DNA from: a virus
Reading direction: 5' to 3' (one strand)
Length of the DNA: 64,000 bases
Virus record (IMG/VR): IMGVR_UViG_3300020599_000003
Span: 96,001 to 160,000 of that record
Program-made: the position numbers and the translations under genes
In this document: piece after piece, positions 39,960 through 53,802 of the stretch
Numbering within the stretch: position 1 is the stretch's first letter
How the letters are laid out: every line of letters begins with the position of its first letter
Notes under the pieces: model-generated
The model's input: only the letters and a program-made list of their open reading frames with translations
Told to the model about the DNA's origin: nothing
Database searches by the model: none

Positions 39960-40658
39960 TTACCGCTCCACCGACACGACCATCGTCCCAAGTTTGGTGG
40001 ATAGCTCGTCCGCGCTCTCGTAGACCGTCTTGTCGAACTCCTCCATGAAGGATTCGGGGAACTGGTCTTCCGTGAGGTCGAACTGCGCGGCCACGTTGGA
40101 CAGGATGGCATTGCGGGTGAAGGTGTCGTCCAGGGCCAGCGGGTACGTAATGTCCATGCCGGACAACACTTCAACGACCGAGCAGATGGCGTCTGTGGTG
40201 ACTGCCATGTCGAGGTACTCAATGTCTTCGTCGGTCAGGTCGCGCTCACGGACGGGATCGGCGACCATCTTACCTTCCACACCGGCGTTGATGCGGGCGC
40301 GAGTGCGTTCTTGGAGCGCAGCCATGGCCTGCTCGATGTAGATCAGGGCGCGCTCGTTGTAGTCGCTCGGATACGGGCCGCCCTGGAAGCAGTCGAGGCG
40401 ATGCTTGCAGATGGCGAGCAGAGCTTCAACTGTCAGACCGTTGGGAGTGTCGTTCTCGACAGGACCTTGCTGGAAGGCGATCAGGAAGCGGTTGCCCACC
40501 AGATTGGACGGGTGAACCGACGGCACGGTGGCTTGGTATAGATGGTACGCGCCGCCGGGGCCAGGCAGGTCGATGGCCTTGATGTCGATGAACTTGTCAG
40601 CCTTGGTCAGCTGGAAGGAGTCGACGATGGGGGATGCTGCGGAGGTGTATGCGCTCAT
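39960..40658 (-). CDS. acb2: Acb2/Tad1-family anti-CBASS sponge domain fused to an acidic C-terminal domain
   Basis: Start MSAYTS at 40658; IAFQQGPV...NGLTVEALLAICKHRLDCFQGGPYPSDYNERALIYIEQAMAALQERTRARINAGVEG matches the Acb2 pattern. Confidence 0.8.
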   Translation of the reverse strand: MSAYTSAASPIVDSFQLTKADKFIDIKAIDLPGPGGAYHLYQATVPSVHPSNLVGNRFLIAFQQGPVENDTPNGLTVEALLAICKHRLDCFQGGPYPSDYNERALIYIEQAMAALQERTRARINAGVEGKMVADPVRERDLTDEDIEYLDMAVTTDAICSVVEVLSGMDITYPLALDDTFTRNAILSNVAAQFDLTEDQFPESFMEEFDKTVYESADELSTKLGTMVVSVER

Positions 40659-41146
40659 TCGGTGCGCTCCTTGGTGTGTGCGGTTTCGTCGATGGCGGGC
40701 ACATCGTTGTCGTATTCGTCGATCAGCAGATCGATCAGTTCGAGAGCATGCGACAGGTCTTGGGTGCCCTTCCACGTGCAGAGCAGGGTGATGACCGACT
40801 GCGCATTGGTGCAGGCCGGGGGACCGCTGAGCGTCGACAGGAAGCGAGTCAGCGAAGCATTGACGCGGATCTCATCTACGAGATGGTGACCCAGATTCGC
40901 GTTCTGCGTGCTGATGCGGCCTTCGTTGTAGACCTCGATCAACTTGACGACGTAGTGACGTGCCTTGCTGAGGTCCTTGAAGGCAGACTCACCCTCCTTG
41001 TTGCCGAAACGAGACAGATACTTGGTTGCTGCGCCCTCCAAGTGGCGAAGGTGGAGGTCAGTTGCCATGTCCCAGTGATTGTAATCACCGCCCTTATAGT
41101 GATCACCACCAACCTGCATTTCATTTGCTTTCATGAGAGTATCCAT
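40655..41146 (-). CDS. DUF3310/SaV-like protein (T7 gp1.7 nucleotide-kinase-like)
   Basis: QVGGDHYK, EGAATKYLSRFGNKEG, DLSKARHY. Confidence 0.8.
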   Translation of the reverse strand: MDTLMKANEMQVGGDHYKGGDYNHWDMATDLHLRHLEGAATKYLSRFGNKEGESAFKDLSKARHYVVKLIEVYNEGRISTQNANLGHHLVDEIRVNASLTRFLSTLSGPPACTNAQSVITLLCTWKGTQDLSHALELIDLLIDEYDNDVPAIDETAHTKERTE

Positions 41147-41150
41147 CTAG

Positions 41151-42200
41151 TTAAGTGTTCTTGATGTCTTTGTTGAGGCGGCGTTCCATCCACAGGCGAG
41201 CAGCAAGCAGCCAATCATTTTCGCACTGGTAAGCAGCGTTGAACGCCACCTTGGCTTCCAGGATTCGATTGTAAGCTGCGGCACGGTCTCCGCTCTTCCA
41301 GAGCGCATACGAATGGCGCATCGGCTCCGCCACGTAGCGAAACCAGGGTACGTCATTGAAGCCAATGTGCTCACACTGATCGTAGTGGCCGACCAGAGTC
41401 TGTACCGCTTCTTCGAAATTCGGATAGTCTGCGCCCAGCGGGTGGGAAACTACCGACGAGTGATAGATGTCTGCAGAGGCTGCGTACTCGCTGGTCAGTT
41501 GGTATTGACCATCGCCACCTTTCTCTACGAATCGCTTAGTGATGTCAAACTCAGTGTACAGGTGCAGATTGTTTGACACCTGATAGTAGGTACCGACAGG
41601 GAAACCCACACGGTTCGCAACGTACTCGTGCAAGAATGAGAAATGCACGACGTTCGCGCCGTAGCAGCCCCAGACGATGTCGTTACTCCGGTTATAAACC
41701 GTCATGTTCACCCGATCACGAAGGATCTCAAACAGAGCAATAAGGTTGCACGCCTTGTCCTTCGTGCTCTTGGTAAGGTCCTCATGGTCCCAGATCTGCA
41801 CAACGGCTTGGCGTGAGTTCGGGTCCTTCTTGAGGATCTGCACAACCTCGTTCAGCTGATCGTGCCCAAAGTGCTTGCGCCACCGATATCCGTAGGCAGC
41901 ATTCTGAGTCTCGCCATCATCGCTGTAGGCGAGCATCTGCTTGGCGTAGAAGCCTACAGTGGCGATGTCATTGTTGCCAGCAAGCATCCACATTGCCTCC
42001 ATCAGATGGAGGAATGGATTCGCATCACGGATGGGGTTGAACGACACACGCTGGAGGGGGTTGGTCCACACCGTCGTAACGGGCGTGGGGAATCGCAGGA
42101 CAGGCCCGTTGCGACTGTCCATTGGAATGCCGTGCAGCAGAACTTGCTGCAATGCCTGAGCTAGTCCCTGGTCTGGATTGCACGCTTCGAGAATGCGCAT
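41151..42200 (-). CDS. Thymidylate synthase homologue, probable dUMP hydroxymethylase
   Basis: SRNG, DPNSRQAV, catalytic KACN, YNRSNDIVWG.YGANVVHFSFL with Asn at the dUMP-specificity position; next to the 5-hmdU kinase. Start MRILEAC at 42200 (AGGAG). Confidence 0.8.
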   Translation of the reverse strand: MRILEACNPDQGLAQALQQVLLHGIPMDSRNGPVLRFPTPVTTVWTNPLQRVSFNPIRDANPFLHLMEAMWMLAGNNDIATVGFYAKQMLAYSDDGETQNAAYGYRWRKHFGHDQLNEVVQILKKDPNSRQAVVQIWDHEDLTKSTKDKACNLIALFEILRDRVNMTVYNRSNDIVWGCYGANVVHFSFLHEYVANRVGFPVGTYYQVSNNLHLYTEFDITKRFVEKGGDGQYQLTSEYAASADIYHSSVVSHPLGADYPNFEEAVQTLVGHYDQCEHIGFNDVPWFRYVAEPMRHSYALWKSGDRAAAYNRILEAKVAFNAAYQCENDWLLAARLWMERRLNKDIKNT

Positions 42201-52485: not shown

Positions 52486-53249
52486 GACAGCGAGAAGATG
52501 ACGGTGCCATCTTCGTTGGTCGTGAACTGTGGGAATCCTTCGACGCCGACGTTCCACTTCTTGACGTTGTGCTCAATGGTGCTGGCCGGGTACATGTCCC
52601 CGTTCAGGTGGAAGCCATCGACCAATGTTTCAGCCATGTTGTCGGCCTGGATGATGCGCCAGTGCTTCGTGTTGCCGTCACTGAGTGTGTTGTAGCGGAT
52701 GTAGAATCGCTTGTAACCAGCACGGCTGCGGAGGAGCTTGTCGCAGACGGTGGCCCAATCGTCAAGTTGCTCGGCACTCTGCCAACCCTGGATGACGAGG
52801 TCGGCGACGCCAGGACCCGCCAGGGTATTGGAGGTGAGGGGCTTCTCGAACAACATATTGGTGTCTGCGAAGCGACCCTCATCGATGGTGTCCATCCAGA
52901 TTTTATGGATGACCAGATTGGAGTTCTCGGTGTTGGCGGCAGCATGGAACGTGCGGCGAGTTTCCAGCGTAGGGTTCACGAAGTCCACGACCACGAACGG
53001 CGCGGTCAGCGACGTGTAGCCAGCGAGGCTGCCCAGGATACGTGCTTGCTCCAGGCGATCCTCAGGCGTGAAGCCCAGGTGTTTGGTAATCGTGCTACGT
53101 GCCCAGTCCGCGTTGATGTGGACCGCACCCAAGAGTTTGCTGAGCTTCTTGGCGAGCGTGGTTTTGCCGGAGCCGGGCAAGCCCATGATGTTGATGATGC
53201 GGTGGGTGCGCGGCGATGACGTTGTTTCGATCTTGGCTTGCTGGGTCAT
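52482..53249 (-). CDS. Adenylyl-sulfate (APS) kinase-like P-loop kinase with a C-terminal extension
   Basis: Start MTQQAK at 53249; MGLPGSGKTTLA, HINADWAR, LGFTPEDRLEQARILG, VVVDFVNP, GRFADTNMLFEKP. Confidence 0.7.
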   Translation of the reverse strand: MTQQAKIETTSSPRTHRIINIMGLPGSGKTTLAKKLSKLLGAVHINADWARSTITKHLGFTPEDRLEQARILGSLAGYTSLTAPFVVVDFVNPTLETRRTFHAAANTENSNLVIHKIWMDTIDEGRFADTNMLFEKPLTSNTLAGPGVADLVIQGWQSAEQLDDWATVCDKLLRSRAGYKRFYIRYNTLSDGNTKHWRIIQADNMAETLVDGFHLNGDMYPASTIEHNVKKWNVGVEGFPQFTTNEDGTVIFSLS

Positions 53250-53250
53250 A

Positions 53251-53802
53251 TCAGTACTCCATGGAATGTTCACTGATGGTGTCGTGGCATCGCAGAACGC
53301 AGATGCCTTCTTCCTTGAACATGTTGATGTTCTTGATGCTGTCGTCGATGGCTGCGACAATGTCCAGACCGGCAGCCTGGATTTTCTTCACGATGCGACG
53401 TTTGTAGTCCACCGAGTTTTCTTCGTGGGGTGCGGTGTCCTTGAATTGGTAGTACCAATCTTCGTAGCCGGGGATGAACGGCTTAATCGCGTTCTCGAAC
53501 GTGCTGATTTGGAACTGGTCCTCCGGGCGAGCCGTCAGGAAGATGAGCGTGTACACCACGGACAGACGGCGCAACATCCTGCACAGCGGGAGAGGCTCGT
53601 CCTCCGGGGCCTCCCGCTCGTAAGCTTCCCAGTCCGCACCCGTGGTCTTGTACTCGATGCGACCGTCGCGGATTTCGCAGATGTGATGCAGGCGCGGCAG
53701 GTTGTTCAGGAGAACACCGTCCACGTCAACGATGAGGACCTGCGAATCTTTCCGCAGGTTGCGGAGGCCAGCAGCCAGACTGTGATCGAAATCTGCCATC
53801 AA
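53251..53802 (-). CDS. HAD phosphatase (PNKP 3'-phosphatase-like) B
   Basis: VDVDGVL, FLTARP, YK, AIDDS..NINMF; paralogue of HAD A. Confidence 0.8.
   Translation of the reverse strand: MMADFDHSLAAGLRNLRKDSQVLIVDVDGVLLNNLPRLHHICEIRDGRIEYKTTGADWEAYEREAPEDEPLPLCRMLRRLSVVYTLIFLTARPEDQFQISTFENAIKPFIPGYEDWYYQFKDTAPHEENSVDYKRRIVKKIQAAGLDIVAAIDDSIKNINMFKEEGICVLRCHDTISEHSMEY

Follow-up and report, generated by a model that had tools for sequence, protein, structure and literature searches.

In kinetoplastids, base J carries a sugar on the hydroxymethyl group of 5-hydroxymethyluracil (hmU) in DNA. This eukaryotic modification is a single glucose without sulfate, and its hmU is formed by the oxidation of thymine in DNA by a JBP dioxygenase. 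Phages M6, PaMx11, and ViI also modify hmU after replication, and they encode a thymidylate synthase (TS) homologue of the deoxyuridine monophosphate (dUMP) hydroxymethylase type with a PF18723 protein beside it (PMC5889632; PMC8989533; PMC11472151). Counterparts of both genes, together with a predicted post-replicative modification of hmU, are found in the 15-gene locus described here. It lies in a 64,000-nucleotide stretch of DNA (the window), which corresponds to positions 96,001 to 160,000 of the 177,803-bp IMG/VR virus record IMGVR_UViG_3300020599_000003 with direct terminal repeats. Coordinates are window positions unless stated as genome positions. The locus is most likely a DNA hypermodification operon of an uncultured phage of the phiRSL1 type. 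We estimate, with a probability of about 0.55, that the DNA of this phage carries hmU bearing a sulfated glycan (sulfated glycosyl-hmU).

The locus differs from the M6, PaMx11, and ViI systems in several respects. In the M6-like phages, the true 5-hmU DNA kinase is a separate P-loop protein (PF18748), and the amino-acid:DNA transferase belongs to PF18724 (PMC8989533). Neither enzyme was detected in the operon, and pyridoxal phosphate, radical S-adenosylmethionine (SAM), and flavin adenine dinucleotide tailoring enzymes were not seen in it or in the flanking genes scanned. In place of enzymes of this type, the operon contains glycosyltransferases (GTs), enzymes of nucleoside diphosphate (NDP)-sugar supply, and a sulfation arm built on 3'-phosphoadenosine 5'-phosphosulfate (PAPS) and sulfotransferases. 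Glycosylation is known from phages with 5-hydroxymethylcytosine (5hmC), in which TAGT/GT-A and GT-B enzymes build mono- and disaccharides on the base in DNA; some of these GTs require an epimerase as partner, and an APH-like kinase together with a cytidylyltransferase is needed in one pathway (bioRxiv 10.1101/2023.12.21.572611). The locus resembles the T-even and TET/TAGT phage pathways in its TAGT/GT-A enzymes, successive GTs, partner epimerase, and donor synthesis by a kinase with a nucleotidyltransferase (bioRxiv 10.1101/2023.12.21.572611; PMC8256090). It differs from them in its base, which is predicted to be hmU made before replication, and in its sulfotransferases, which the 5hmC pathways lack; the word stem 'sulf' is absent from the 5hmC preprint (bioRxiv 10.1101/2023.12.21.572611). 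The third group of similar systems, SP-15, YerA41, and Carin-5, are likewise large phages with a bulky, anionic, sugar-bearing replacement of thymine, and relatives such as RP13 carry aGPT-Pplase clade 1 (PMC12686479, PMC13697223). These systems use a dihydroxypentyl-type linker and phosphate and have a PolA of the clade fused to uracil-DNA glycosylase, whereas in our case sulfate is predicted and PolA is of the phiRSL1/BcepSauron type.

Post-replicative hypermodification of DNA through hmU and the glycosylation of DNA are already known; the new element is a version without the kinase and with a PAPS/sulfotransferase arm. To our knowledge, no sulfate ester has been described among natural DNA base modifications. 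We found no paper on sulfated DNA glycans, phage DNA-linked sulfotransferases, or phiRSL1 DNA chemistry, with most subscription journals lying outside the literature searched. If the prediction is true, one base in four would carry a sulfated glycan, which would change both the charge and the shape of DNA. This would bear on how phages evade defences based on restriction, CRISPR, and glycosylases, on how their DNA is packaged, and on why sequencing of such genomes may be poor. The enzymes would also be new tools with which hmU in DNA could be tagged.

The 15 genes are co-oriented on the minus strand and occupy positions 40655-53802, with every open reading frame (ORF) present at the coordinates listed. 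In the order of transcription, they code for the following proteins (APS, adenosine 5'-phosphosulfate):

53251..53799, minus strand: first gene, HAD phosphatase, subfamily IIIB-like (Pfam Acid_phosphat_B 29.1 bits, cut-off 27; pI 5.1)
52482..53249, minus strand: APS-kinase-like P-loop kinase with a C-terminal domain of ~110 aa (Pfam APS_kinase 39.6 bits)
51976..52485, minus strand: HAD phosphatase of the polynucleotide-kinase 3'-phosphatase type (Pfam HAD_PNKP 32.8 bits)
50884..51969, minus strand: TAGTd, GT-A glycosyltransferase of the TAGT family (Pfam TAGT 42.6 bits; DDD motif; pI 9.7)
49445..50887, minus strand: nucleotidyltransferase/APH-kinase fusion, 480 aa (AlphaFold model pLDDT 94.6; phrog_24015 290.6 bits)
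48684..49445, minus strand: second putative nucleotidyltransferase, stand-alone (phrog_3980; N-terminal G-x-G-x-R motif)
47930..48697, minus strand: TAGTc, GT-A glycosyltransferase of the TAGT family, start ATG 48697 (Pfam TAGT 125.3 bits, full model; phrog_842 146.4 bits; pI 9.7)
46932..47930, minus strand: GTb, divergent GT-A-like protein (phrog_842 47.6 bits only, no Pfam match; DDD motif; pI 9.55)
46135..46923, minus strand: ST2, sulfotransferase of the PAPS-dependent family (Pfam Sulfotransfer_2 70.3 bits; phrog_3347 165.4 bits; pI 6.3)
45323..46138, minus strand: ST1, divergent sulfotransferase paralogue (Sulfotransfer_2 36.3 bits, N-terminal part only; pI 6.8)
44112..45332, minus strand: GTa, divergent TAGT-like GT-A protein, likely start ATG 45332 (phrog_842 56.9 bits; DDD motif; pI 9.65)
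43123..44115, minus strand: UDP-glucose 4-epimerase GalE (NCBIfam TIGR01179 equivalog 338.7 bits, cut-off 262.3; Pfam Epimerase 162.3 bits)
42227..43153, minus strand: PF18723 'HMUDK_hel' protein, formerly aGPT-Pplase clade 1 (Pfam 141.6 bits; pI 9.6)
41151..42200, minus strand: TS homologue, dUMP hydroxymethylase type (phrog_5131 370.7 bits; Pfam Thymidylat_synt 78.7 bits)
40655..41146, minus strand: last gene of the run, DUF3310 protein, candidate (hydroxymethyl-)dUMP kinase (phrog_5839 84.7 bits)

With start codons refined, neighbouring genes mostly overlap by 1-14 bp (usually 4 bp) or are separated by no more than 9 nt, and a 118-bp gap lies upstream of the first gene (ATG at 53799). Within the run, consensus scans gave no more sigma-70 promoter-like or terminator-like sites than the shuffled expectation. 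The operon is embedded in the replication module, with PolA (59209-62418) and primase (56867-57883) upstream and a RecA-like gene (34599-36083), thioredoxin, and PhoH downstream. PolA is ~40% identical to its counterparts in Burkholderia phages BCSR5 and BcepSauron, Ralstonia phage phiRSL1, and Achromobacter phage Motura. An earlier first-pass annotation of this DNA had described a tightly packed, co-oriented run of 15 ORFs, and its family assignments were mostly reproduced in Pfam, PHROG, and NCBIfam searches. GalE, both sulfotransferases, the APS-kinase-like enzyme, and the two HAD phosphatases were all recovered with the scores given above, and TAGT-type GTs, NDP-sugar supply, and the sulfation arm do lie together in one operon within the replication module. 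At 177.8 kb, the genome is formally not that of a jumbo phage.

A similar cluster is present in the cultured Ralstonia phage phiRSL1 (NC_010811.2), which has the same core set of genes. Its ORF228-238 follow the order APS kinase, TAGT, fusion, nucleotidyltransferase, TAGT, GT, sulfotransferase, PF18723, TS homologue, HAD_PNKP, with identities of 27-71% to the proteins of the operon. The phiRSL1 cluster differs in having one sulfotransferase and three GTs, in its PF18723 protein (27% identical), and in the absence of HAD IIIB and of any GalE counterpart. Compared with phiRSL1, GalE, the extra GT, and the second sulfotransferase appear to have been gained jointly, which looks like one additional sulfated sugar. 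A megablast search of the phage collection with the locus gave no match. The comparison of gene neighbourhoods, which had been proposed as a check, revealed a shared set of four genes, those for the TS homologue, PF18723, sulfotransferase, and APS kinase, in phiRSL1 and in five metagenomic phage contigs (L006, L007, L010, L018, and L020). In L006 and L010, CysD- and CysN-like genes are placed inside the cluster, between the sulfotransferase and the TS homologue. The cluster of L018 contains UDP-galactopyranose mutase, and that of L020 has GT-B, not TAGT, glycosyltransferases together with PF18723, a 538-aa TS homologue, and dUTPase_2. phiRSL1, L006, L010, and L018 also have a HAD_PNKP gene alongside the TS homologue. 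Since primase or RecA-like genes of the window also recur in L006, L007, and L010, this conservation is largely vertical. In one more contig, L009, a nucleotidyltransferase, a sulfotransferase, two further genes (one unannotated, one with a weak GT-B match), and APS kinase are located among gyrase and exonuclease genes. L009 and L020 share a variant module consisting of the sulfotransferase, two genes (both GT-B in L020), and then APS kinase, which suggests that sulfated DNA glycans may also be made with another GT family.

The TS homologue provides the evidence for hmU. Its best match in the PDB was the CMP hydroxymethylase MilA with 93 bits, compared with ~48 bits for the best true TS, and it is 44% identical to PaMx11 gp51. 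The catalytic Cys-Asn and the RSND and GAN motifs are invariant among nine phage TS homologues. In the alignment with MilA, the GAN specificity motif falls on the SD of MilA, with Asn in place of the MilA Asp. These results agree with the earlier assignment of the protein to the dUMP-hydroxymethylase type and of Asn to its dUMP-specificity site. The TS homologue is the sole TS-family gene in the genome; dUTPase_2 and dCMP deaminase are encoded elsewhere in it. On these grounds, we accept that the phage makes 5-hydroxymethyl-dUMP and incorporates hmU into its DNA, as predicted by family membership. In this scheme, dCMP deaminase and dUTPase would supply dUMP before replication, the TS homologue would convert it to 5-hydroxymethyl-dUMP, and the phage PolA would insert hmU in place of some or all of the thymine. 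The DUF3310 protein may phosphorylate 5-hydroxymethyl-dUMP. Its Pfam score (22.3 bits) is just below the cut-off of 24, four PHROGs labelled 'nucleotide kinase' also match it, and a stretch of 74 aa has 49% identity to the gene located after the TS-homologue region in Stenotrophomonas phage Sonora.

Of the four GTs of the first-pass annotation, two are clear members of the TAGT family (PF20691, gathering cut-off 27.5 bits), namely those at 47930-48697 (125.3 bits) and 50884-51969 (42.6 bits). GTa reached 25.4 bits, under the cut-off of 27.5, and the fourth, GTb, was recognized by phrog_842 only. TAGTc is the best conserved GT, with 71% identity to phiRSL1 ORF234 and 43-62% identity to the proteins of L006, L007, and L010, and appears to be the likeliest first DNA glycosyltransferase. 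TAGTd is 63% identical to phiRSL1 ORF237 and 49% identical to its counterpart in L006; GTa is 27% identical to phiRSL1 ORF233. The isoelectric points divide the operon into two groups. The four GTs and the PF18723 protein have pI values of 9.55-9.72, and the remaining ten enzymes, including both sulfotransferases, have pI values of 5.1-6.8. This split fits GTs that bind DNA and sulfotransferases that act on the sugar. The operon partners, the replication module, and the basic pI suggest a hydroxymethylpyrimidine in DNA as the acceptor of the TAGT enzymes, which would attach a short glycan to the hydroxyl of hmU after replication and extend it.

The sugar donors would come from three proteins. 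GalE, which passed the TIGR01179 equivalog cut-off, would supply UDP-Gal, and the 480-aa fusion with the second nucleotidyltransferase would supply a further activated donor. The nucleotidyltransferase and APH-fold kinase named at the first pass were weak by sequence, as matches of the fusion were marginal, and the assignment was settled by the confident AlphaFold model. In a Foldseek search, the N-terminal half matched the sugar- and alcohol-phosphate nucleotidyltransferases RmlA, GMPP, LicC, PntC, TarI, and HddC. The C-terminal half matched APH(2'')/APH(3') and ethanolamine kinase and thus has the APH/choline-ethanolamine-kinase fold. The fusion is predicted to activate a sugar or alcohol donor in two steps, phosphorylation followed by nucleotidylation. 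Its family comprises 2903 representatives, and it is 38% identical to phiRSL1 ORF236. The stand-alone nucleotidyltransferase gave no Pfam or PDB sequence match and is 31% identical to phiRSL1 ORF235, annotated as 'nucleotidyl transferase'. PDB sequence searches also gave no match for the fusion, the PF18723 protein, ST2, or TAGTc.

The sulfation arm begins with PAPS. A CysD gene and a gene for a CysN-like GTPase lie side by side on the minus strand at genome positions 160718-163130 (window 64718-67130), ~0.7 kb beyond the end of the window. CysD scored 353 bits on NF003587 (cut-off 195) and 117.8 bits on PAPS_reduct; in the case of the CysN-like GTPase, CysN was the best family at 256-285 bits, under its cut-off. 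The APS-kinase-like protein of the operon is predicted to convert APS to PAPS. All of its best significant aligned PDB matches are APS kinases (2yvu, 45.5 bits), with the substrate-loop region D-W-A-R...LGFTxEDR in common, and it is 48% identical to phiRSL1 ORF238. Together, CysD, the CysN-like GTPase, and APS kinase give a full phage-encoded route from sulfate to PAPS. The C-terminal extension of ~110 residues (window 52482-52830) has no family match and is conserved in phiRSL1 ORF238, L006, and L010. PDB matches of this extension to designer pentatricopeptide repeat proteins contained no significant stretch and were rejected.

Both sulfotransferases pass the Sulfotransfer_2 cut-off of 22 and contain what we take to be the 5'-phosphosulfate-binding (5'-PSB) and 3'-phosphate-binding (3'-PB) motifs for PAPS. 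In ST2, these are the 5'-PSB-like HNPKAAGTS and the 3'-PB-like VRNPYDR, and in ST1 they are HNPKAGGTS and VRDPLDR. ST2 is 66% identical to phiRSL1 ORF232. ST1 has 31% identity to the same protein over 149 aa, and phiRSL1 lacks this paralogue. The cellular matches of ST2 are 40-44% identical; one is an enzyme of a Pantoea ananatis O-antigen locus (40%), and the other adjoins APS kinase in a bacterial regulatory neighbourhood. The Pantoea homologue indirectly suggests a carbohydrate acceptor. The two carbohydrate-type enzymes would transfer sulfate to the sugars of the donor or of the DNA glycan, and the resulting base, bulky and anionic, would stop restriction enzymes and other nucleases. The HAD phosphatases may remove 3'-phosphoadenosine 5'-phosphate (PAP), nucleotide, or sugar phosphates; the HAD_PNKP protein may be a PAP 3'-phosphatase or a nucleotidase, a role that we infer. 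A scan of IMG/VR with ST2 revealed only two distant loci, L004 and L005. They carry two or three sulfotransferase paralogues (28-32% identity) beside epimerase/dehydratase genes.

The gene at 42227-43153 had been called a 5-hmdU DNA kinase, and this call proved wrong. The protein matches only the helical PF18723 family, contains no Walker A motif, P-loop, or kinase domain, and has a helix-hairpin-helix glycosylase-like fold; its homologues are labelled 'aGPT pyrophosphorylase clade 1' by JGI. Of the proposal that a dUMP hydroxymethylase and a 5-hmdU kinase start the pathway as in ViI, M6, and PaMx11, the hydroxymethylase stands and the kinase does not. A search for PF18748 (HMUDK_HMUD1) was negative both in the 177.8-kb genome (threshold E <= 1) and in complete phiRSL1 (threshold E <= 0.1), and the control search was positive in three of three M6-like phages. 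A very divergent kinase could escape this search, given that the validated PaMx11 kinase gp49 scores only 17 bits. PF18724 (ADDT, formerly aGPT-Pplase clade 2) likewise had no match in the genome or in complete phiRSL1. The APS-kinase-like protein was considered as the missing DNA kinase and rejected, because APS kinases account for all of its informative family matches and for its best significant PDB matches with an aligned stretch, and because CysD and CysN are present in the genome.

A model of the PF18723 protein (pLDDT 90.6) had no significant match with Foldseek alone. With VIA-align, the best match was PaMx11 gp46 (8z2n; Z 11.1, 223 residues aligned), followed by HhH-GPD DNA glycosylases at Z 7-9, values that are only moderate for a helical protein. 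The invariant Cys274 and Phe188 fall on Cys247 and Trp146 of gp46, with a non-significant hhalign profile alignment (E 0.39). PaMx11 gp46 is the glycinyltransferase of 5-phosphomethyl-deoxyuridine (5-PmdU), and both of these residues are named as functional (PMC11472151). The PF18723 protein is predicted to be a base-flipping hmU-DNA enzyme or adaptor, and it would serve the GTs as a glycosylase-fold partner, probably base-flipping. The operon shows that PF18723 proteins work without their namesake kinase, so their function becomes a testable question. Other homologues without a nearby kinase were found in L011, beside TAGT and radical-SAM genes, and on another contig near an ADDT gene. The PF18723 gene is 24-27% identical to the copies of phiRSL1-type loci, among them L006, L007, and L010, compared with 50-71% for the neighbouring genes with phiRSL1, and 52-91% identical to genes on other metagenomic contigs in unrelated contexts without sulfotransferase; the gene thus looks exchanged. 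In metagenomic proteins P0124-P0126, PF18723 is fused to DNA polymerase A, and one of the fusions includes an N6/N4 methyltransferase domain as well; this arrangement hints at a replication-coupled role. Among the longer fused forms, no fusion to a sulfotransferase or kinase was seen, which is weak evidence either way. On an unrelated contig, an Acb2_Tad1_hairpin gene lies near an ADDT gene.

Several points weigh against sulfated glycosyl-hmU. Beyond the observed gene content, folds, conservation, and missing matches to the kinase and transferase families, all chemical steps are read from genes, and the acceptors of all GTs and sulfotransferases, including the DNA glycan as the predicted site of the sulfate, are read from context. 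Two of the four GTs fall under the Pfam TAGT threshold, and the NCBIfam apsK score of the APS-kinase-like protein (37.9 bits) is under the equivalog cut-off. The M6 homologue of the PF18723 protein, gp55, is dispensable for glycine transfer in vitro (PMC8989533). The recurring loci come mostly from one viral clade, so their conservation is largely vertical and not independent, and ordinary bacterial loci can also contain this sulfotransferase family next to an APS kinase. The homologues in bacterial O-antigen or regulatory loci, together with the two sub-threshold GTs, also speak for a target other than DNA. The GTs and sulfotransferases might act on host lipopolysaccharide, exopolysaccharide, a virion protein, or a small molecule, with only the TS homologue and the PF18723 protein concerned with DNA that contains plain or simply modified hmU. 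We regard this as quite improbable, since the genes are translationally coupled between those of PF18723 and APS kinase within the replication module, association with DNA-base modification is what defines the family of the clear TAGT members, and all four GTs are strongly basic. Furthermore, the Pfam scans assigned no operon protein to a membrane or export family, and the association with the TS homologue is the same in seven loci. Phages also commonly carry sulfur-assimilation auxiliary genes, and in this genome CysD and CysN are located outside the operon. Both facts would suit sulfur-activation genes that boost host sulfur assimilation, with inactive or incidental sulfotransferases and DNA bearing unsulfated glycosyl-hmU. 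This is very improbable, as both sulfotransferases keep their PAPS-binding motifs and use PAPS, not APS, as the donor, the APS kinase gene is within the operon, and CysD and CysN stand between the sulfotransferase and the TS homologue in L006 and L010.

The leading alternative is a different use of sulfate, in which the sulfotransferase would replace the P-loop kinase. It would O-sulfate hmU in DNA with phage PAPS to give 5-sulfooxymethyl-dU, the PF18723 protein, a relative of the amino-acid:DNA transferase, would displace the sulfate with a nucleophile via its conserved cysteine, and the GTs would decorate this nucleophile, so that the finished base need not hold sulfate. Such a scheme would explain a PF18723 gene without detectable PF18748 and PF18724 in this genome and in phiRSL1; the control found the kinase in all three M6-like phages searched. 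In these phages, the kinase gene is directly upstream of the PF18723 gene, and the sulfotransferase gene holds this position in phiRSL1, L007, and L010. Even with a different GT family (L020), the set of sulfotransferase, APS kinase, and PF18723 is kept. The best match of the PF18723 model is gp46, and the placement of Cys274 and Phe188 on its functional residues (PMC11472151) may be used as a hint, although the E-value of 0.39 counts against it. The identities of the PF18723 protein, low to phiRSL1-type copies and high in contexts without sulfotransferase, argue against a co-adapted pair. The nearest cellular sulfotransferase homologues are in polysaccharide loci, and neither sulfotransferase shares the basic charge that all predicted DNA-binding proteins of the operon have. 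Two paralogues are present here, the second of which came with a GT and GalE, and TAGT enzymes require no activated hmU. We therefore consider a leaving-group role of sulfate unlikely, and sulfate-activated alkylation of a DNA base, parallel to the phosphate-activated M6/ViI route, is put forward only tentatively. Sulfated glycosyl-hmU remains our preferred reading.

Three further genes were found next to the operon, downstream of its last gene. The first (39960-40658, minus strand) is translationally coupled to the DUF3310 gene, with ATG at 40658 and AAGGAG upstream; a Pfam scan of the longer ORF at these positions gave no match. The other two minus-strand genes (38391-39359 and 39364-39786) have no family match and are 37-45% identical to counterparts in L006 and L010. 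These counterparts lie between the HAD_PNKP and dUTPase_2 genes, and the two genes may therefore share a nucleotide-metabolism module.

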